A stretch of DNA of 64,000 nucleotides from an uncultured Verrucomicrobiae bacterium. Lineage in GTDB: Bacteria > Verrucomicrobiota > Verrucomicrobiia > Chthoniobacterales > Chthoniobacteraceae. Numbering within the stretch: the stretch's first letter is position 1; the number at the start of each line of letters is the position of its first letter. Made by a program: the position numbers and the translations under genes. Below are positions 35,670 through 50,409 of this stretch, one piece after another. The notes beneath the pieces are model-generated. The model ran no database searches. It had not been told where the DNA came from and saw only the letters and a list, made by a program, of their open reading frames with translations. The stretch lies in the NCBI GenBank assembly GCA_963769025.1, contig CAVYKI010000004.1, forward strand, positions 64,001 to 128,000. Reading direction: 5' to 3'.

Positions 35670-35761
35670 TGGCGGAGAGAGAGGGATTCGAACCCTCGAT
35701 ACGGTTTAACCCGTATGACGCTTTAGCAAAGCGTTGCTTTCGACCACTCAGCCATCTCTCC
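35670..35761 (-). tRNA. tRNA-Ser(GCT)
   Basis: Reverse complement GGAGAGATGGCTGAGTGGTCGAAAGCAACGCTTTGCTAAAGCGT...GGTTCGAATCCCTCTCTCTCCGCCA; long variable arm, G discriminator, encoded CCA. Confidence 0.97.
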
Positions 35762-39871: not shown

Positions 39872-39971
39872 CGCACCGCGTTTAGCCTCGCGCGCCGCGG
39901 TGACGGCAGATCGCAGGACGTTATTGCCGGGGTGAGCAAAGGTCTCGGTCCCGGATTCGGATCCGCCAAAC

Positions 39972-40139
39972 TTAAAACGGAGTGCGCCGGCTGGAAATCT
40001 GCGCGGCTCCGGGCGACTGAATCTGGACTCCGACGCTGCCGTGAAGAATATCGTCGTCGTGCGATCCTTGCCGGGCCGCGCAGCCGGACAGAATGAACGC
40101 AAAGCCGATTGCCACGAGGGGAAGCAACCGTTGGCTCAC
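39972..40139 (-). CDS. Small putative lipoprotein
   Basis: GTG start, hydrophobic stretch and lipobox 'LSGC'. Confidence 0.5.
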   Translation of the reverse strand: MSQRLLPLVAIGFAFILSGCAARQGSHDDDILHGSVGVQIQSPGAAQISSRRTPF

Positions 40140-40152
40140 AGCCTTTTCGCGA

Positions 40153-40581
40153 CTAGTTCTTTTTTGCGGTCGGCGCGGGTCCACCGCTCTTTTTTGCCGC
40201 CTCCCAGCGCGCTTTCATTGCAGCTGCCAGCTTTGCCCTCACTTCGGGAGACATCTTGCGTTTCTTTTTCGCTGGAGCTGCTGCTGCTTTGGGCTTTTCC
40301 GGAGCCGCGACCTTCGCCTTCGCGGCGGCTGGCGCTTTGTCGCCGGCCTTGACCTTCGCCCAACGCTTTTTCTGAGCCGCCCTGATGTTGGCAATGGCCG
40401 TGGGTGACAGCTTGCGTCGCGCGGTTTTGGCGGCCTTGGCAGGCTTGGCGGCGGGTTCTGCGACACGGGATGCTGATTGCGGCTGGCTGCCGAGAATGGC
40501 TGCGAGTTCCTTTTCGAGTGCCGCGATCTGTTCGGCGAGCTCGAGACCGCGCTGCCATTGAGAGAGGGTGGGGATATTCAT
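40153..40581 (-). CDS. Small basic Lys/Ala-rich protein (candidate nucleoid-associated protein)
   Basis: N-terminal coiled coil; two 'RK(L/M)SP....(I/L).AA.K.RW' repeats. Confidence 0.75.
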   Translation of the reverse strand: MNIPTLSQWQRGLELAEQIAALEKELAAILGSQPQSASRVAEPAAKPAKAAKTARRKLSPTAIANIRAAQKKRWAKVKAGDKAPAAAKAKVAAPEKPKAAAAPAKKKRKMSPEVRAKLAAAMKARWEAAKKSGGPAPTAKKN

Positions 40582-40678
40582 GGGGCTGACAGGTATTGCC
40601 TAACTGAAAAATAGCAAGCGGCGTTGCAAATGCCCGTGCATGGCCTTGCTTGGAGTGCGGCTGTGAAAGGAGGTTGAT

Positions 40679-41437
40679 TCACTGGGCCGTCCAGCCGCCG
40701 TCGATGACCACATCGGTCCCTGTGACGAAACCTGCATCTTCCGAGCACAGGTAAAGCGCGAGCTTCGCGATCTCCTCCGGTTTGCCCCAGCGGCCGAGCG
40801 GGATCTTTGCGAGGAATTGTTCCCGCAGCTCCGCGTTTTGCATTAGCGGTACGTTGATTTCCGTGTCGCACACGCCGGGGCTGATACCATTGACGGTGAT
40901 TTTTTCCCCCGCGAGTTCGAGCGCGAGCGCACGGTTGAATCCGAGCAGTGCCGTCTTGCTGGCTGAATAGGCGGTGCGGCCCGGCAGGGAGATGTGGGAC
41001 ATCATGGAGGTCATGTTGATGATGCGCCCGTAACCTTGCCCGGTCATCATGGGGACGAATGCGCGGCAGAGCAGAAACACGCTGGTCAGGTTGGTGTTCA
41101 GCACGCTGTTCCACTCGGCGAGTGTGAAGTCGGTGACGGGTTTGCGGATGTTGATCCCGGCGTTGTTAATGAGGATGTGCAAGTGGGCGCCGATCCGGGA
41201 GGCGAATGCATCGTGCACACCGGCGACCTGAGTTTCGTCGGTGACGTCGGCGACGAAGACCTCGGCGTTGCCGCCGTTGCCCCGAATCTCCGCGGCGACA
41301 TCATTCAGCTTCGGTCCGTCGCGGGAGACGAGTGCGACGGTCGCGCCAGCCTCGGCGAGGGCGAGCGCCATCGCCTTGCCAAGGCCCTTGCTGGCTCCGG
41401 TGATCAGTGCGGTTTTGCCGTGAAGTGGTCGAGTCAT
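40679..41437 (-). CDS. SDR oxidoreductase (gluconate 5-dehydrogenase-like)
   Basis: 'TGASKGLG', 'NNAG', 'YSASK', 'DGGWTAQ'. Confidence 0.92.
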   Translation of the reverse strand: MTRPLHGKTALITGASKGLGKAMALALAEAGATVALVSRDGPKLNDVAAEIRGNGGNAEVFVADVTDETQVAGVHDAFASRIGAHLHILINNAGINIRKPVTDFTLAEWNSVLNTNLTSVFLLCRAFVPMMTGQGYGRIINMTSMMSHISLPGRTAYSASKTALLGFNRALALELAGEKITVNGISPGVCDTEINVPLMQNAELREQFLAKIPLGRWGKPEEIAKLALYLCSEDAGFVTGTDVVIDGGWTAQ

Positions 41438-41621
41438 GGCCGGACAATACGGAGTGAACCTGCCGACGTGACACAAAAAACACGCTGGCCAGCCCGGATG
41501 CTGGCGGGCAACGTGCGGCAGTGAACGCGCCGTCGAGACAGTCCCCGCCAAGCCGGACGGTACCGGACCGCTGTGCTCCGGCCGCTTTCTGCGAGATACT
41601 CGACATCGAAAGGAGACAGCG

Positions 41622-42209
41622 GTGTCCGAACTCCTAGTCAGGGATCGCTGGTATGCGCTGATCGTCGCCGGGCCGAGCGGCTCGGGAAAGAGCGTGGTGG
41701 CCGAGCATGTCGGGCGGGAGCTCAGCCTGCCGGTGATTGATGCCGACGATTACCATAGCCGGGAAGCGGTGGAGCTCATGAAGCGCGGGACGCCGCTTGC
41801 GGACGAATATCGCGAGAGTTGGGCGGAACGCATCATCGGCGGGATGATCGCCTGGCGTCGGCGCGGTGAGAGCGTGGTCATTGCATGCTCGTGCATCCGC
41901 CGCCGCACGAGGGATCGTTTTCGCACCTATGTGAACGAGGCGCGAATCGTGGGCGGTCAGGTGGTCATCGCATGGCTGGATGTATCGCCGGAGGTGCTCC
42001 GGACGCGCCTTCTGCGCCGGGAGGAGGAGCAGACGCACTTCTTCCCTGCGTCGCTGCTTGGCTCTCAGCTCAATGCCGCGCAGCCCCCGGATCCGCAGAG
42101 CGAACCCGGGGTGATACGGATCGCAGTCGGACCGGAGGCGCCCGACGCTGTCGCTCGAAAGGTTTGGGAATCCGTACCGGCACTTCATCCATTCGTTGCC
42201 CGCGCCTGA
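41622..42209 (+). CDS. Gluconokinase (GntK/IdnK type)
   Basis: 'GPSGSGKS', 'DADDYH', 'G.PL.DE.R', 'IACS', 'HFFPASLL.SQ'. Confidence 0.82.
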   Translation: MSELLVRDRWYALIVAGPSGSGKSVVAEHVGRELSLPVIDADDYHSREAVELMKRGTPLADEYRESWAERIIGGMIAWRRRGESVVIACSCIRRRTRDRFRTYVNEARIVGGQVVIAWLDVSPEVLRTRLLRREEEQTHFFPASLLGSQLNAAQPPDPQSEPGVIRIAVGPEAPDAVARKVWESVPALHPFVARA

Positions 42210-42351
42210 CACCGCGGTGGTCAAACGCACGAGGAGGGGCGGATGCCATCAGGAACCGTCTGGATGAGTCCAGACGGATGCCTTCACCCACACATGGGGA
42301 CTGCGACTTCCGGCGCGTCAGAATGTACGGCTGCGGCCGAAGGACTCCGCG

Positions 42352-43026
42352 CTAGCTTGCCAGGCGGTAGTGTCCCGGGCCGACCTTCTTGATATCCTTG
42401 AAGTTCTTGCCGGTGGTCGAAAACCACACAAACAGGTTGCGGGGGTTCATGCCAAATTGCTTCGCGAGATCACCGACGCGGGCACCGTCCTTGCCAGCGG
42501 CCTTCAGCGCGTCCTGAATGCCCGCTGACAGCTCACCGCGCTTGGATCCGACGGACTTCAGCGCCTTGGGAGCCGCCTTCGCAGGCGTCGGGGCCGCAGG
42601 CGCCGCGGCGGGCACGGGTCCGACGAGGCGGTAGCGGCCCTTTCCAGCCTTGCGGATCGCGGGAATGGTCTTCCGCGCAAATTGAAACCAAGAATGAAGG
42701 GCTTCGGGCTTTGCGCCAAGTTCCGCCGCAAGGTCCCGCACACGCATGCCGGCTTTTCCGGCCGCGCCCAGCGCTGCGAAGATGCGTCCTTTCAATTCAC
42801 CCCGCGGGGCGCGTCCCGGTGTCACTGCCGGGGCCGCTTTGCCCGCGACCGGCGCGGCTTTTTTCGCGACCGGAGTCGCAGCGGTCACTCCGCTGTCGGA
42901 AAATAGTGCGTTCTTGATGCGTTCCAGGCGGGCCAGCACTTGATCGAGCTTGCCTTGCAAGGCGGCGCGCTCTTTTTCAATGCTCATTGCTTCTTTGAAC
43001 AGGTCGATTCGGGATGGTGAGGACAT
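42352..43026 (-). CDS. Coiled-coil plus tandem winged-helix-like DNA-binding protein; start approximate
   Basis: Two ~62-aa repeats 'RGEL...I..AL.AAGK.G.RV.DLA...G..P..L..WF.......I.K.G.G.YRL'. Confidence 0.7.
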   Translation of the reverse strand: MSSPSRIDLFKEAMSIEKERAALQGKLDQVLARLERIKNALFSDSGVTAATPVAKKAAPVAGKAAPAVTPGRAPRGELKGRIFAALGAAGKAGMRVRDLAAELGAKPEALHSWFQFARKTIPAIRKAGKGRYRLVGPVPAAAPAAPTPAKAAPKALKSVGSKRGELSAGIQDALKAAGKDGARVGDLAKQFGMNPRNLFVWFSTTGKNFKDIKKVGPGHYRLAS

Positions 43027-43180
43027 AGGGCTGGATGCTTCATCCATACTCCCGATATTCTCAAGTATTATCTTGCTAGCGTCAGATTGCGGCACGTCTG
43101 GTGGCTTGGTGTGCGCGGACGGCGGAGCGGGCTTCCTGCCCGCGGGACAAGTGCCTTCCCGGATGTGGATCACGATTCCT

Positions 43181-43208
43181 TTGCAAAAACCTCCGCCAGC
43201 GCTATCGT
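43181..43208 (+). promoter_or_regulatory. Putative sigma70 promoter of the L,D-transpeptidase gene
   Basis: TTGCAA-N16-TATCGT, 11 nt before ATG 43220. Confidence 0.35.
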
Positions 43209-43219
43209 CCCCAGCCTCT

Positions 43220-43792
43220 ATGGAAAAACGAAACTTCAGCAGCCTGATTCTTGCCCTCGTTGCAATCGGCGTGCTCGCTGGGTGCGCAACAAAACCGCCG
43301 CCGCCGCCGCCCACGCCAACCCCTGCCAAACCCGCTCCGCCCTATACCTGGAATGACACCGGCGCCACCGGCGACCCGAGGATCGTGGTGAACGTCTCGA
43401 GGCAGCGAGCTTACTTCTTCCGCGGGAACGAATGTGTTGGCGACACGCGGTGCAGCACGGGCAAGAAGGGTTTTGCAACGAAGCTCGGTGCTTATGCCGT
43501 GACGCAAAAGAACAAGGACCATGTCTCAAATCTATACGGCAACTTTGTCAACGAAGCGGGAGAGGTCATCCAGCGCGACGTGGACATGAGCAAGATGCAG
43601 GTTCCGGAAGGCTGTTCGTTCCAAGGTGCGAAGATGCCATACTTCATGCGCTTCACAGGCGGATACGGGCTGCATGCCGGAAAAGTGCCGAACTACCCTG
43701 CGTCGCACGGTTGCGTGCGGCTCCCGCGGGTGATGGCGGAGCGCTTCTTCGTGAATAGCAGGATCGGCACGCCAGTCCTGGTTGAAGAATAG
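43220..43792 (+). CDS. L,D-transpeptidase (YkuD) lipoprotein
   Basis: Lipobox 'LAGC', 'MPYFMRF', 'GLHAG.VP.YPASHGCVRLP'. Confidence 0.92.
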   Translation: MEKRNFSSLILALVAIGVLAGCATKPPPPPPTPTPAKPAPPYTWNDTGATGDPRIVVNVSRQRAYFFRGNECVGDTRCSTGKKGFATKLGAYAVTQKNKDHVSNLYGNFVNEAGEVIQRDVDMSKMQVPEGCSFQGAKMPYFMRFTGGYGLHAGKVPNYPASHGCVRLPRVMAERFFVNSRIGTPVLVEE

Positions 43793-44193
43793 GCGGCGCT
43801 GGGGGCGGAGTGCCACGTCCTCGCGCCGTGCCGGCTTGGACGGACGCCGCGAGCGGGTGAAGGCCGACGGGCGCGATGCGGCGGGGCTGTGCCAGCGGCT
43901 GTCGCGCTTTGTGAACGGCAACCGCAGGGAACTGGCTGTCATCAGCGTGGAACGTGGCGCGAATCCGCAGCCTGACCGGCACTCGGTCCGCACGAAGTGC
44001 GACGCCATATTCGAGCGGAGCGAGAAAGACTGGCCGCAGGCCAGCCCGGAGGGTGACGCCGGGAGGCGTCATCAAATTGGACCGCGCCCCGTTCCGCTTC
44101 ACCCGCCGCATCCGTCATACGGTGCTGTCCGCCCTGCGGCCAGGCTCAACTCAGTTCACCAAACTTCCATCTTCACCACTTTCATAGGGGGTG
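43793..44193 (+). pseudogene. Degenerate IS110-family remnant (transposase fragment plus structured non-coding tail)
   Basis: 'ALGAECHVLAP' then frameshift to 'RERVKADGRDAAGLCQRLSRFVNGN..ELAVISV' (KxDxxDA motif); ends at the trailer of the adjacent cassette. Confidence 0.6.
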
Positions 44194-44203
44194 GGCGTTG
44201 CGG

Positions 44204-44731
44204 TCATTCGGGATTAAGTGCTGCGATAGCTGCCTCATGCAGCCACGCGCGCTGATAATGCTCGGCGTAGTAAGCGGAAATATTGTCGTCGCCGCGATTG
44301 AGGTTGCGTCGCTGCGCCTCCTCGATGTCGCAGGTGATGCCCTGCATCTCGACGCCGTTGCCGATAGCGCGCATGGCGTCGATGAGTGCCTTGGTGGGCT
44401 CGAAGTCAGAGCCGATAAGCTCGGTGACGATGTGCCGTCGCTCGTCGATGGCCTGGCTCGCGATGATCGGTCCGATAACGTCGAGAAACTCTGCGAAAGG
44501 GCCGGGAAAGTCGAAATACTCGCCACGGCTGAGACTGAGAAACACCTCGGCGGCGTCCACGAGAACATAGCCGGACGAAAAGCGTTGCTTGCGGACGGTG
44601 GTCTTGCCGGCGGCGGGGCCGCCCATGAGGATGACAATGCGCGGCTGAGTGCCGTTCGAGAGTGATGAGTCGTCGAAGTAACGGTCAATCTCGGCACTGA
44701 TGTCGAACTGGAAGACGCGTTCTTCTGGCAT
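44204..44731 (-). CDS. Gene cassette: P-loop kinase-like protein (zeta-toxin/AAA_33-like)
   Basis: 'PRIVILMGGPAAGKTT', 'VLVDA.E', 'EEAQRRNLNR'; preceded by core GTTAGCC. Confidence 0.7.
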   Translation of the reverse strand: MPEERVFQFDISAEIDRYFDDSSLSNGTQPRIVILMGGPAAGKTTVRKQRFSSGYVLVDAAEVFLSLSRGEYFDFPGPFAEFLDVIGPIIASQAIDERRHIVTELIGSDFEPTKALIDAMRAIGNGVEMQGITCDIEEAQRRNLNRGDDNISAYYAEHYQRAWLHEAAIAALNPE

Positions 44732-44754
44732 GGCTTTCAGGATGCGCGAGCAAC

Positions 44755-44796
44755 GGCTAACGCACCCAAGCTCAGCGACCACGGAGCGGTTCGCTG
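44755..44796 (-). other. attC site, distal half (end of L'', central stem, L', R')
   Basis: Minus strand CAG-C-GAACCGCTCCGTGGTC-GCTGAGC-TTGGGTGC-GTTAGCC. Confidence 0.85.
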
Positions 44797-44865
44797 AGTC
44801 GCCGTTAATCGTGGGGTGAACATTGCTGCGGAGCGTATCGCTTCGCAGTGCGAAGATCAAATCCC

Positions 44866-46040
44866 ATGAAGACGAAACTCCAACCCAAACCACCAACCAA
44901 GAACCCGAAGTATTCCGTCTATGCCGCCCTCGATTTGCACAGCGCCCGCAGCGTGCTCGGCGGCATGGACCATGACGGGAACGAACTCGGCCAGTCCCGG
45001 TTCCCGACCGATGCCGAACATCTCACGCAGGCCGTGCGCTCCCTGGGCGGCACCGGCGTGTGCCTGACCATGGAGGCCAGCTCGCTGACCCGCTGGGCCG
45101 CGGGGCTGGTGCGGCCACTCGTCGAGCGGCTCGTCATCTGCGAGCCGCGGCGCAACCGGCTCATCGCCGAGGACCCGAACAAGAATGACGGGCAGGACGT
45201 CACCAACCTGTGCTTGCTTCTGCGCATCAACCGGCTCAAGGAAGTCTGGATGGGCGACGACCGCCAGCGCCAGATCCACCGCGAACTGGTCTATGAACTC
45301 CTGAACTGGCGCGACGCCCAGCGCGAACTCAAGGCGCTGCATCAAAGCCCGCTACCGGCAGTGGGGCGTGCTGCGCGTGGAGGGCACCGGCGTCTTTTCG
45401 CGCACGCAACGCGAGCGTTATCTCAGCCAGCTCCCCGGCGAGGAGGAAAGGAGGATGCTGCTGCGCGTCTATGCCCAGCACGACCACGCCATCGACCAAT
45501 GGAAGAACACCCTGCGCGAAGTGCTGCCGCGTGGGCCGCCAGTTCTGGGAGGTGGGCGAGTTCAAAAAGATCCCCGGCATCGGCATCATCGGCGCCCACG
45601 TCTTCAGCGCCATCATCGAGGACCCGGCCCGCTTTGCCACCCGGCAGAAGCTCATGAAGTATGCGCGGCTGGCGATCACCGGTCGCAGCAGCGACGGCAA
45701 GCCGCTGGGCTACGAACGGCTCGAACGGCGCGGCCACCGCGAACTCAAGACGCTGAGCTATCACGCCTGGCGCACCGCCTGCCGCAGCACCACGCGCGAC
45801 AACGCCGTGCAGCGCTTCTACCGCGCCAGCCTCGAGCGCACCCACGACGTGCGCCACGCCCGGCTCAACACCCAGCGCAAGATCCTCGCCGCCATGTGGC
45901 GCATGTGGCTCAAACGCGAGGCATGGAAGCCCGAACTCTTTTTCACAGCCACCGACCCGGACGCGACCGCGACCGGGCGAAGCCAGCCTGAGAACGCCGG
46001 CCCGCGTAAAGAGGCACCGCCTCACGCGGCTCAGGGTTGA
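44866..46040 (+). CDS. IS110 DEDD recombinase/transposase, two frameshifts (~45340, ~45525)
   Basis: 'AALDLH', 'MEAS', 'KNDGQD', 'IPGIG', 'RF.TRQKL..YA.L', serine loop 'SSDGK', 'RRGHRELK'. Confidence 0.9.
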
Positions 46041-46044
46041 CGAC

Positions 46045-46320
46045 CCCGGCGTCCGCAGCGCAGCGGACTGGGAAAACGCCGGCCGCACACACCCGGCCAT
46101 GCGCTTGGGCGGTCTCGATTCAAGGGGGGAACTGCCCCCGCGGGCCCAGCCCCGATTCGCATGAATGGTGCGGCCGGCGACATTTCCGCCAGTTCCCCAA
46201 GGATGACCCTGGGCGGCCAAGTCAGCAAGTCAGCAAGCTAATAAGCTGACGAGTTAGCAAGTGAGCACAAAGGCCAGCTTCCAAAGCCTGCATGGAACCC
46301 CGACACGTCATCGCAGTCCG
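46045..46320 (+). ncRNA. Candidate bridge/seekRNA of the IS110 element; ends approximate
   Basis: Perfect 12-bp stem 46077-88/46168-79 enclosing an internal loop with CCATGCGCT (46097-105), the reverse complement of target 46481-89; AAAGCCTG (46283-90) identical to IS right end plus core. Confidence 0.65.
46219..46266 (+). repeat. Six degenerate tandem 8-mers in the IS right end
   Basis: aagtcagc aagtcagc aagctaat aagctgac gagttagc aagtgagc. Confidence 0.75.
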
Positions 46321-46476
46321 CCGTCCCGCCGCAGACGCCCGTCCCGCCAGCACCCCAAAGGCACTCCGCCCATCACATCGCCCGGACTCCGGACGACAAA
46401 CCCCGATAGTCATCAAAGAAAAATGACGCCACTAACGGGGCGCGTCCCCCCATGCTTTTATGACTTGATTAAAAGC

Positions 46477-46495
46477 CTGCAGCGCATGGTTCGGC
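46477..46495 (-). other. attC site, proximal half (R'', spacer, L'')
   Basis: Minus strand GCCGAAC-CATGC-GCTGCAG, 34 nt after the SnoaL cassette stop. Confidence 0.85.
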
Positions 46496-46529
46496 GTTGC
46501 GGTCACTTGGGATTTTTGCGTCGCGTCGC

Positions 46530-46856
46530 TCACGGAACAATGCGCAATCTCGCGATTTTGCCGTCTCGAAGTGTGAAGGTGTAGTGAAGCGGAATCGGAC
46601 TTCCGGGAAAATTGCCGCTGACGGTGGCGGTAACGACCGTATCGTTACCCGCATGTGACAGGTCGGTTACTTTGGCAATTGGTTTGGCTTCCGCAGTGGC
46701 GCGTTCAATCCATTCTTTGATGGCGGTGCCGCGATGATCCTTTGATTCATCGGTGACGTGGGCATCGGCGGTGAACAGCGAGAGGAAATCTGCAAACTCT
46801 CGTGTGTTGGTGGCGTGGAAGAAGGCAGCGATAACCGGTGGGAGTAATACGTTCAT
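46530..46856 (-). CDS. Gene cassette: SnoaL/NTF2-like protein
   Basis: 'F..DA.V.DE', 'VSGNFPGSP..L.Y.F.L.DGKI..L.I'; flanked by GTTAGGC core and attC. Confidence 0.85.
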   Translation of the reverse strand: MNVLLPPVIAAFFHATNTREFADFLSLFTADAHVTDESKDHRGTAIKEWIERATAEAKPIAKVTDLSHAGNDTVVTATVSGNFPGSPIPLHYTFTLRDGKIARLRIVP

Positions 46857-46921
46857 GGCTTTCTTGTGGATGTTAGTGTCGAGCGAATTCTTGTTCGTTC
46901 TGTGGTGGAAGCGCGAGCATC

Positions 46922-46945
46922 GCCTAACATTTTGATTGAGCCGCA
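46922..46945 (-). other. attI-like recombination site
   Basis: Minus strand GGCTCAATCAAAAT-GTTAGGC: perfect GTTRRRY core preceded by an A-rich tract, without an attC L' box. Confidence 0.55.
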
Positions 46946-47296
46946 GGGGTGCGGCATATCCACGCGATCTAAATGCGGCATTTGCGGAGTGGAGCGGGGG
47001 CGGTTTACTCGGGCAAGCGGAAGTTTTTCCGGCTGCTGGAGGCCGTCGGCGCGGGGTGGAAGGGTCGTCGCGCTCGGCTCGTTCGGTGTGCTTGTTTCGA
47101 TCGTGCAGGTTAATCCGGCCCGCACGCCCGACACCGTCCGCGAAACTGACGCGGGCTCATTGGTCGGGTTTCCGGGAGCGTGTTTGGATTGGGGTTTGCG
47201 TGATTTTCGGAACGTCTGATTCCACCGGCTCCCGGCCGGCGCATGGGCGCGCTTTTTTTACTCGCACCGGGAGGGCGAAGCGTTTCGAGTCGGAGC

Positions 47297-49303
<2,007 letters not shown>

Positions 49304-49378
49304 GTCCTTTGTGCAAAGGTGGTGCATCGGTACCACCGCTTGAGCATTTGGGAGTTCTGGACCATCGTTCGCGCCAAC

Positions 49379-50389
49379 ATGAAACGTCTCGCGCTGTACC
49401 TCCTCCTCGCAGTGGCCCTCCTCGGTGTCTCCCAAGCCGTCATCAAGCGCGACTCGATGGACGTGCTGCGCGAAAGCCAGGAGGCATTTGAAAAGCGCGA
49501 CTTTGACCGCGCGGCGAAGCTCCTCACGGAGGCGATCGAGGCGAATCCCAAGCTGGTGCCCGCCTACGTGCTGCGCGGTCTCGCGAATGCCTCGCGCAAC
49601 AGGTTCGACGACGCGATCGCCGACTACTCGAAGGCCATCGAACTCGCGCCCGAGGACGAGCGCCCGCGGCTGCTGCGCGCGGCGATCCACCAGATCCGCA
49701 AGGAATACGACAAGGCGATCGCGGACCTCGATTTCGCGCTGAAGAAGGAGCCTGGAAACTCGGAGCTGCTCGCGACGCGCGGAATCTGCCGCGCGCAAAA
49801 GGACGACGACGAGGGCGCGCTGAAGGACTTCGATGCCGCGGTGAAGGCGGACCCGAAGAACGTCCATGGCTGGCAGCTCCGCGGCTCGGCCTACTCGGAG
49901 AAGGGCGAAAAGGACAAGGCGCTCAGCGATTTCAAGGAGGCCATCACGCTCGACCCGAACAACGCCGCGACCTATCTCTACCGCGCCCACCTTTACCTCG
50001 TGGAATCCGAGCCGGAATCGGCGCTCTCGGACCTCGAGGAAGTGATGCGCCGCGCGCCAGATTTCCCCGGCGCGGCCAATGACTACGCGTGGACGCTTGC
50101 GACAAACCCGAAGGACTCCGTGCGCAACGGACACAAGGCCGTGGAGTTCGCGAAGAAGGCCTGCCACGAGACGGACTACAAACACGCGCCCACCGTGGAC
50201 ACGCTGGCCGCGGCCTACGCCGAGGCGGGCGATTGGGAGCAGGCGGTGAAGTGGCAGCAGGAAGCCATCACGCTCGCTGAGAAAACGCACCCGGACGACG
50301 TGAAGGGCATGAAGGAGCGGCTCGCGCTCTTTAAGGAAAAGAAGCCCTTCCGCGAAGTGCCCGTGCGCGACAGAAAGCCGAAGCCGTAG
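49379..50389 (+). CDS. Secreted TPR-repeat protein
   Basis: Repeats 'AIADY.KAIEL.P'; 'AW.LAT.P...RNG.KA', 'DTLAAAYAE.G'. Confidence 0.9.
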   Translation: MKRLALYLLLAVALLGVSQAVIKRDSMDVLRESQEAFEKRDFDRAAKLLTEAIEANPKLVPAYVLRGLANASRNRFDDAIADYSKAIELAPEDERPRLLRAAIHQIRKEYDKAIADLDFALKKEPGNSELLATRGICRAQKDDDEGALKDFDAAVKADPKNVHGWQLRGSAYSEKGEKDKALSDFKEAITLDPNNAATYLYRAHLYLVESEPESALSDLEEVMRRAPDFPGAANDYAWTLATNPKDSVRNGHKAVEFAKKACHETDYKHAPTVDTLAAAYAEAGDWEQAVKWQQEAITLAEKTHPDDVKGMKERLALFKEKKPFREVPVRDRKPKP

Positions 50390-50409
50390 GCGGCTGGCTC
50401 GCCTTTGTT

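Follow-up and report, generated by a model that had tools for sequence, protein, structure and literature searches.

What directs a mobile element into the recombination site of an integron cassette, so precisely that the site is restored when the element is taken out, is the question raised by a locus in a Verrucomicrobiota genome, probably one of the Chthoniobacterales. The locus lies in a 64,000-nt stretch of contig CAVYKI010000004.1 (assembly GCA_963769025.1; positions 64,001-128,000 of the forward strand). This whole stretch is referred to here as the window, and coordinates without a contig prefix are positions within it. At 44797..46479 on the + strand the window carries an insertion sequence (IS) of the IS1111 type, 1683 bp long with one CTG included, which splits an attC site. 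The explanation that we regard as very probable is that this is an RNA-guided element, inserted site-specifically in the L'' arm of the attC site and aimed there by an RNA encoded downstream of its transposase gene. This explanation draws on the anatomy of the insert, on an insertion position and orientation common to many relatives, and on the covariation of guides with flanks and of stem strands with each other.

Anatomy and state of the insert

Joining 44755-44796 to 46480-46495 and reading the minus strand gives a 58-mer identical to the string that a preliminary description of the locus had obtained by deleting 44797-46479. The 5' part of the site (46480..46504, minus strand) is the right flank of the IS; a conserved lead-in, GACCGCAAC, is followed there by the R'' box GCCGAAC (46489-46495), by the spacer CATGC and by the beginning of L'', GCTG. 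The 3' part (44755..44796, minus strand) is the left flank of the IS and holds the rest of L'' (CAGCGAAC), a loop, the L' box GCTGAGC (44770-44776), the spacer TTGGGTGC and the R' box GTTAGCC (44755-44761). The transposase is encoded on the + strand and the SnoaL_2 open reading frame (ORF) and the next ORF on the minus strand, so that the IS lies opposite to the cassettes, as had been described.

Relatives of the element were collected in a genome scan, restricted to one genome per species, which gave 13 loci, and in a metagenome scan, which gave 191 stretches encoding relatives, 80 of which were retained. The ends of the window IS are common to the loci L006, L007 and L099 and occur in diverged form in about 80 more. 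The left end (44797..44813, + strand) is a 7-nt extension, AGTCGCC, followed by the subterminal inverted repeat GTTAATCGTG (44804-44813), and the right end (46464..46479, + strand) is the inverted repeat CTTGATTAAA (46464-46473) followed by the 3-nt extension AGC and CTG. The short subterminal repeats of the preliminary description are therefore present and are imperfect, with about 7 of 10 positions complementary. The extensions outside them measure 7 nt on the left and 3 nt on the right, CTG not counted. IS1111 elements have subterminal inverted repeats of about 11-13 bp, and a rule of 7 nt on the left and 3 nt on the right is given for their extensions (PMC11187229).

A CTG stands at both junctions (44794-44796 and 46477-46479) and had been described as a 3-bp core. 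Across the elements compared, the left junction is CTG in 70 of 71; the right junction is CTG in 32, CTT in 26, CTC in 13 and another triplet in 2. Since the third base of the right junction varies, it is supplied by the target, and the conserved crossover core is CT, not CTG. The presence of CTG at both junctions of the window copy stands, as a coincidence of the target base. The crossover core of IS621 is likewise CT (PMC11208160). Limits of 44796-46478 for the IS, drawn by the CT core of the relatives, are equally valid.

The transposase reading frame starts at 44866 and stops at 46038-46040 on the + strand, which leaves 69 nt of non-coding sequence before the start and 439 nt after the stop. 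A long non-coding region downstream of tnp is a criterion of the IS1111 group (PMC11187229, PMC11208160), and the layout of the element would place it there. The coding sequence is spread over three frames, and the pieces align in order with the intact 368-aa protein of L006. The first piece (44866..45339, + strand, frame 1) is the DEDD/RuvC-like N-terminal part (PF01548, E 0.004; NF033542, E 1e-8) and aligns with residues 7-147 at 67% identity. The second (45341..45529, + strand, frame 2) is the middle part and aligns with residues 145-208, and the third (45531..46040, + strand, frame 3) carries the C-terminal Transposase_20 domain and the stop codon and aligns with residues 210-366. PF02371 scores 48.6 bits on the third piece (E 1e-12; cut-off 21.3), and 47.7 and 41.7 bits on the intact proteins of L006 and L011. 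NF033542 ('IS110 family RNA-guided transposase') matches the first and third pieces of the window copy below its cut-off and covers the intact relatives end to end, from position 1 to 343 of 343, at 77 bits. Residues D12, E59, D97, D100 and S264 are invariant in seven intact relatives, and we take them to be the catalytic residues.

With PF02371 above its cut-off, NF033542 matched over its full length and an IS1111-like layout, the insert is, to judge from its sequence, a divergent IS1111-type element of the IS110 family, in agreement with the preliminary description. Profile scores that count against this assignment are the 77 bits of NF033542, below the curated cut-off of 140 bits, and the 17.4 bits of PF01548 on the first piece, under a cut-off of 29; PF01548 gave no match at E 0.001 in L006 or L011.

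Relative to the intact L006 and L007 proteins (368 aa), the frame changes lie near 45332-45339 and 45523-45528. Contigs 90-99% alike to the window were found in four public runs from four studies. In all four, the contigs are without one base at 45339 and one at 45523 or 45525, and GGC replaces the window sequence between 46001 and 46038. The attC halves are far deeper than the IS in the public runs, with summed depths of 715 and 1442 against 7.5 in run X6, and loose ends show the uninterrupted site. The public-run data are contigs and are evidence of presence only; at most 31% of the sampled words were contained in any one run.

It is possible, if doubtful, that the window copy is a dead relic, with real frame breaks, an attC site split for good, and mobility only by means of the protein of another copy. 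The spread of the transposase over three frames would fit this, as would the absence of the extra base at both places from the contigs of all four other runs, the truncation of the sole other copy in the assembly by an IS3-family element, and the intact state of other long ORFs in the window. The frame breaks are nevertheless more likely to be indels of the assembly, because other genes are broken as well. The essential rpoB gene (G000:C3:124523-128279, outside the window) falls into nine consecutive pieces in three frames, with eight frame changes relative to the family model, and the FAD-oxidoreductase gene of the window (FAD_oxidored with a Golvesin_C domain; 47716-49303, + strand) is split over two frames (47716-48186 and 48140-49303). 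Two breaks per 1.2 kb also fit the indel rate of the assembly, which probably contains many single-base indel errors; this bears on its completeness figure of 83%.

Insertion position and predicted guide RNA

The preliminary description had pointed to copies in unrelated sequence as the observation that would contradict it. The second copy in this genome and the relatives lie in the same type of site. The second copy (C6:19231-19921) is 100% identical across the last 691 bp, is cut short upstream, at IS position 993, by an IS3-family element (OrfA HTH_Tnp_1, OrfB rve), and has on its right the same 17 nt of attC before the sequences diverge. L006 and L007, with 72% DNA identity to the window IS, have the same ends and the same flanks, and attC centres of other lengths. 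A TGGTTAG-like complement of R'' was found within 18 nt in 65 of the 70 distinct right flanks. The R'-spacer-L' motif was found in at least 43 of the 68 distinct left flanks of at least 150 nt, as compared to 5 of 204 control stretches taken from inside transposase genes. The count of 43 is a lower bound, and by eye several of the 25 misses carry the motif; stricter patterns gave 21 and 26 of 68. Judged by these flanks, nearly all relatives appear to occupy the same attC position, antisense to the cassettes.

In the case of the second copy, the locus taken as a whole (L022, C6:19231-21424) presents an IS within an IS within an attC site. In the case of L007, the 2712-nt contig of a Limisphaerales metagenome-assembled genome (MAG) begins with the IS right end and reaches an IS left end after 1133 nt, which reflects either two IS copies in adjacent attC sites around one cassette or a wrap of the assembly at the repeat.

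The 439-nt region after the transposase stop codon is the best-conserved non-coding part of the element. It folds as two like modules, resembling a seekRNA or bridge RNA, each built of an internal loop between a closing stem and a variable inner hairpin; single-sequence folds and a duplex permutation test served to identify the stems. The predicted target-binding module (module 1; 46077..46179, + strand) has a 12-bp closing stem (46077-46088/46168-46179) and an inner hairpin. The 5' strand of its loop, CCAUGCGCU (46097-46105), is the reverse complement of the right flank AGCGCATGG, and on the 3' strand the candidate guide UUCGC (46156-46160) equals the left flank TTCGC. The predicted donor-binding module (module 2; 46193..46298, + strand) has a closing stem, an internal loop of about 13+13 nt and an inner hairpin with a 46-nt insertion. 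The 3' strand of its loop, AAAGCCUG(C) (46283-46291), equals the right end of the element, followed by CT and by the first left-end base. The sequence matched is the junction of right end to left end and not the right junction of the integrated element, which fits a donor in circular or synapsed form. In the window and in the relatives, the guide order predicted in silico is a top-strand match 5' of the bottom-strand match.

The inner hairpin of module 2 contains an extra stretch of about 46 nt (46204-46262), rich in AAGTCAGC-like repeats. The stretch is absent from L006 and L007; an insert is found at the same place in L099 and apparently in the close relatives from runs X1 and X6. A conserved AUGAC in the donor loop was considered as a guide for the left end and was rejected; it fits GTCAT or GTCGT in some left ends and displays no convincing co-variation.

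The mechanism proposed from this arrangement is as follows. The 1.68-kb element, an IS1111-type member of the IS110 family with a DEDD recombinase, would enter the L'' arm of an attC site through site-specific recombination, in this instance the site between the SnoaL cassette and a second cassette of a two-cassette integron remnant. An RNA encoded downstream of the transposase gene would aim the element at attC. The 5' strand of the target loop would pair with the top strand to the right of the CT core, over the attC spacer and the edge of R'', and, on the left of the core, the 3' strand would pair with the bottom strand in the inner L'' stem. The second loop repeats the element's own right end plus the core. 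This would be the seekRNA/bridge-RNA mechanism that experiments have established for other elements of the IS1111 and IS110 types. We infer that the RNA is made and bound and that the element moves through a circle.

Support for guide function comes from the relatives, taken from genomes and metagenomes together, across about 86 of which the predicted guides and the flanks co-vary. In total, 86 elements were parsed, 66 of them with a right flank of at least 12 nt and an A in the first three bases, and two mis-parsed guide strings (L013a and L018) were excluded. One position of the right flank varies between G and T, and the guide base opposite it fits in 60 of the 66 elements (Fisher 1.7e-9) and in 25 of 29 distinct guide-flank combinations (p 3e-4). 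Four different 9-nt guides were found, each with its exact cognate flank; among the 39 guides of this length, the complement is 9/9 in 26 and 7-8 in the other 13. When seven hand-typed lineages were permuted, 104 of 5040 arrangements reached the observed guide-flank fit. Of the 69 elements with a left flank, 59 carry a left guide 5-mer identical to it, and the donor guide variants AAAGCCUG, AGAACCUG and AGAGCCUG match the corresponding right-end variants in 64 of 71. The closing stem also varies by lineage with its pairing kept (CGCCGGCCGCAC/GTGCGGCCGGCG, GATCCGAA/TTCGGGTC, ACCCGG/CCGGGT and TTCCGG/CCGGAA). Its own strands pair at a mean of -12.4 kcal/mol as compared to -8.8 kcal/mol for swapped strands, and none of 2000 permutations reached the observed mean.

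Several results weigh against this explanation. For the window alone, the guide match is not significant: 140 of 1000 dinucleotide shuffles yield a 9-nt match to the 40-nt target, and 30 of 1000 yield the target and donor matches jointly. RNAalifold, applied to a plain MAFFT alignment of the target module, returned 3 local pairs only, and the left-end guide of the element is not assignable from the donor loop. Guides of 10-11 nt require one or two bulged bases, and a misfit between guide and flank is seen for 10 of the 69 left and 6 of the 66 right guides. The elements are kin, and all of the covariation counts therefore overstate the number of independent events.

It is very unlikely that attC is instead found through recognition of its folded hairpin or its sequence by the protein, with the complementarity in the non-coding region incidental or concerned with donor handling only. 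A guide match that lies within chance for the window alone is compatible with such recognition. An attC site is structured and partly palindromic, so that short complementary stretches arise easily, and the two guide strands are able to pair with each other in single-sequence folds. However, guide and flank vary together at homologous positions of the loop, each of four different 9-nt guides is accompanied by its cognate flank, and an RNA mechanism has been demonstrated experimentally for the attC-targeting elements ISKpn4 and ISPst6 (PMC11187229). These points argue for RNA guidance.

At four metagenome loci (L038, L040, L041 and L066), the right junction reads ..AACCT CATCG.., with one base fewer between CT and the guide-matched flank than in most other elements. 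This suggests that a one-base shift is tolerated or that the target is a different attC variant.

The attC family and its integron context

The core sites of attC follow the consensus RYYYAAC for R'' and GTTRRRY for R'. The R'' box (GCCGAAC) and the R' box (GTTAGCC) of the window have one mismatch each to this consensus. Elsewhere, the boxes read GCCTAAC and GTTAGGC in intact sites of this genome, and RYCTAAC and GTTAGRY in the sites of G003, an uncultured Verrucomicrobiae MAG. Folded as single-stranded DNA, the 58-mer has the energy of its shuffles (z of -0.5 for the top strand and 0.0 for the bottom strand). Longer members of the same attC set reach z values of -2 to -4.4, with the bottom strand the more stable. 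In the folds, one base is bulged in L'' and a second further in, and the central part measures 9 to about 75 nt. Because fold energy alone does not set the 58-mer apart, its identity as an attC site rests on family membership.

The R''-spacer-L'' 19-mer is found intact elsewhere in this genome, at C12:520684 (19/19), and with one to three changes at C3:1372398, C12:521894, C6:379450 and C6:380239. In four of these five sites, all except the truncated C12:521894, it is followed by a variable centre and then by GCTGAGC, a 7-8-nt spacer and GTT. Beyond the GTT of R', the site sequences part and an ORF starts. In G003, an IntI gene lies at 21.8 kb of its contig (436 bits; TIGR02249 cut-off 265), and the same contig holds 25 intact sites of the same architecture, all in one orientation, 258-2636 nt apart and divergent from intI. 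The array spans 19 kb in single-ORF-sized units, and two further sites are occupied by the IS. IntI scores above the cut-off in three of the four relatives' genomes. Applied to 23 intact G003 sites, RNAalifold gives an L stem in which two bases bulge, separated from the R box by an unpaired spacer, and 10 of the 22 pairs in this consensus fold display compensatory double changes. Given the intact homologues in this genome and the G003 array beside IntI, the split site appears to be a member of an attC family of which this genome has intact copies, and the attC geometry attributed to the rebuilt 58-mer is supported.

A surrogate covariance model (R1), built from the 23 G003 attC sites only, stood in for the attC model of IntegronFinder. 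Over the window genome it matched three intact sites with genome-wide E values from 1e-8 to 1e-5: C12:521304-521421 (43 bits, E 1e-8), C12:520684-520810 (37 bits) and C3:1372294-1372416 (33 bits). Its best match between 38000 and 52000 of the window is 44755-44810 (19 bits, E 4e-4), which comprises the L'-R' half plus the first bases of the IS. A sequence hidden Markov model of the G003 sites matches the IS-deleted sequence (E 8e-4 in an 836-base search) and does not match the interrupted sequence. The preliminary description had also named, as an outcome that would contradict it, a rebuilt 58-mer that fails to score as attC; with these surrogate models, this check and the one on other copies both came out in its favour. 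Rfam, at gathering thresholds, returned one tRNA only in the window and no family over the attC site or the seekRNA region.

Two other leads were set aside. The IS left end (GATTAAC..GGCGACT) can be aligned by R1 as a mimic of R''-L'' in a hybrid hairpin, but most relatives have AAT there, not AAC, and the likeness is probably due to chance. A genome scan for attC-like sites with a loose regular expression gave 143 matches, mostly spurious.

It is scarcely credible that the repeats are non-integron palindromes and the element a repeat-targeting IS like ISPa11, which targets repetitive extragenic palindromic (REP) elements: the failure to detect an integron integrase at the cut-off in this assembly (best match 85 bits, cut-off 265) counts in favour of that idea and against an integron origin, as do the single complete site with remnants in the window, the shuffle-like fold of the 58-mer and the position by which R'' and R' each depart from consensus, but the assembly is 83% complete and indel-rich, the same architecture forms the 19-kb array beside IntI in G003, three of four relatives' genomes encode IntI, and divergence directly after the GTT of R' is what cassette crossover is expected to leave.

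With the repeats taken as attC sites, the cassette of the split site is the one that carries the SnoaL_2 ORF (46530..46856, minus strand; PF12680, E 8e-10). The cassette starts with GTTAGGC (46922-46928, minus strand), and the sequence before this motif is unlike attC. The second cassette (44194..44733, minus strand) contains an ORF of 176 aa (44204-44733) with a P-loop-like motif and no Pfam match. At its end the same lead-in, GACCGCAACGCC (44194-44205), is found, and attC is lost beyond it. The window thus holds a two-cassette remnant between chromosomal genes and no working integron. R''-L'' and L'-R' now lie 1.68 kb apart through the IS, and the folded attC is unable to form as before. The split site is presumably unusable by an integrase, and a loss of SnoaL cassette excision is plausible from this arrangement; the loss is moot in this genome unless an integrase is encoded in the unassembled part.

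A cluster of three attC-type sites is present at C12:520684-521912 (520684-520810, 521304-521421 and 521894-521912), with no integrase nearby. The first site is unoccupied and is a perfect target for both IS guides. The third consists of the R''-L'' start only and ends about where the IS inserts elsewhere.

In the surroundings of the insert, from about 39900 to 50400, ORFs have a G+C content at third codon positions of 0.58-0.78, as compared to 0.79-0.85 in the flanking genes, and this part of the window looks like acquired DNA. A tRNA gene lies at 35673-35761 (minus strand). The FAD_oxidored gene at 47716-49303 is without the first approximately 130 profile positions, and the 783-aa minus-strand ORF by which it is overlapped (47939-50290), probably a spurious one, gave no match in Pfam.

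Relation to known elements and meaning

An IS1111-attC subgroup of Proteobacteria was reportedly described by Tetu and Holmes in 2008. ISPa21 and ISPst6 are placed in a monophyletic IS1111-attC subgroup that inserts near the attC 5' end, antisense to the cassettes (PMC3001079), and ISKpn4, ISPst6 and ISPa25 target one end of attC sites (PMC11187229). In IS1111 elements, a seekRNA is encoded downstream of tnp with its top-strand match 5' of its bottom-strand match, and is essential for movement (PMC11187229). The window element resembles the group formed by ISPa21, ISPst6, ISKpn4 and ISPa25 in being of the IS1111 type with a 3' non-coding region and in its insertion, antisense to the cassettes, close to the 5' (R''-L'') end of attC. 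With ISKpn4 and ISPst6 it also shares top- and bottom-strand guide matches, belonging to a seekRNA that was demonstrated for those elements (PMC11187229) and is predicted here.

The window element differs from that group in its hosts, in the attC family that it occupies and in its protein. Eleven of the 13 loci of the genome scan are labelled Verrucomicrobiota (Chthoniobacteraceae, Limisphaerales, Udaeobacter and others). The other two come from MAG contigs with an Acidobacteriota label; a locus labelled Verrucomicrobia is identical to one of them. An RpoB piece of the window genome shares 91% identity with its counterpart in a Chthoniobacteraceae MAG and 77-82% with the counterparts in three other relatives' genomes, so the host is very probably a Verrucomicrobium of the order Chthoniobacterales. 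The IS was absent at E 1e-10 from 400 sampled genomes of the same phylum, a small sample that says little. The protein is very distant, as judged from a search of plasmid records: when the intact L006 protein was compared by tblastn with 72,556 plasmid records, the best identity was about 28%. Neither Pseudomonas nor Klebsiella is among the ten genera listed most often (Rhizobiales, Enterococcus, haloarchaea and others). Identities of at most about 28% would argue against close kinship with the IS1111-attC subgroup. Together with the Verrucomicrobiota labels and the RpoB identity, they bear out the placement in a different lineage that had been suggested at the outset.

Comparison with other guided or attC-homing systems leads to a similar placement. 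The DEDD recombinase and the CT core are shared with IS621 and the bridge-RNA recombinases of the IS110 group, for which a bridge-RNA model with a CT core has been presented, with the bridge RNAs of IS1111 elements in the right end (PMC11208160). Unlike IS621, whose RNA lies in the left end, the window element has its predicted RNA in the right end and its two target guides in reverse order, as in IS1111, and its right guide is 9 nt long and begins two bases from the core. Group IIC-attC introns are also mobile and home near the attC 5' end, antisense to the cassettes (PMC3001079), but as retroelements they possess a ribozyme and a reverse transcriptase, and the window element has neither. ISPa11, also an IS1111 element, is directed by its seekRNA to a structured repeat (PMC11187229); that repeat is a REP element, not an integron site. 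The window element and its relatives thus add a lineage to a kind of integron parasite that is already known, and do not amount to a new mechanism. No literature report of such elements in Verrucomicrobiota was found in a search that left most subscription journals outside its reach.

It may be, as we tentatively propose, that these elements form a separate, mainly Verrucomicrobiota radiation of IS1111-like RNA-guided recombinases, that their targeting of attC is independent of the proteobacterial IS1111-attC elements, and that their guides have been re-programmed in nature after attC variants, as at least four 9-nt guides with cognate flanks would suggest. If this is true, they are an integron-specific genomic parasite of soil bacteria that co-evolves with the integron recombination sites of its hosts. 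IS1111-attC insertions have been suggested to immobilise cassettes, a suggestion for which the same source notes little experimental evidence (PMC11616780). Integrons have been studied mostly in Proteobacteria, where these elements are suspected of freezing cassette arrays, and the same parasitism is now seen in Verrucomicrobiota of soil, where the transposase is distant and the attC family a different one. For this genome, one split attC site is explained and a decayed two-cassette remnant is marked. For the family, the natural series of guide-target change in about 86 elements is a test bed for the targeting rules of IS1111-type seekRNAs, and the relatives are a source of divergent programmable recombinases.

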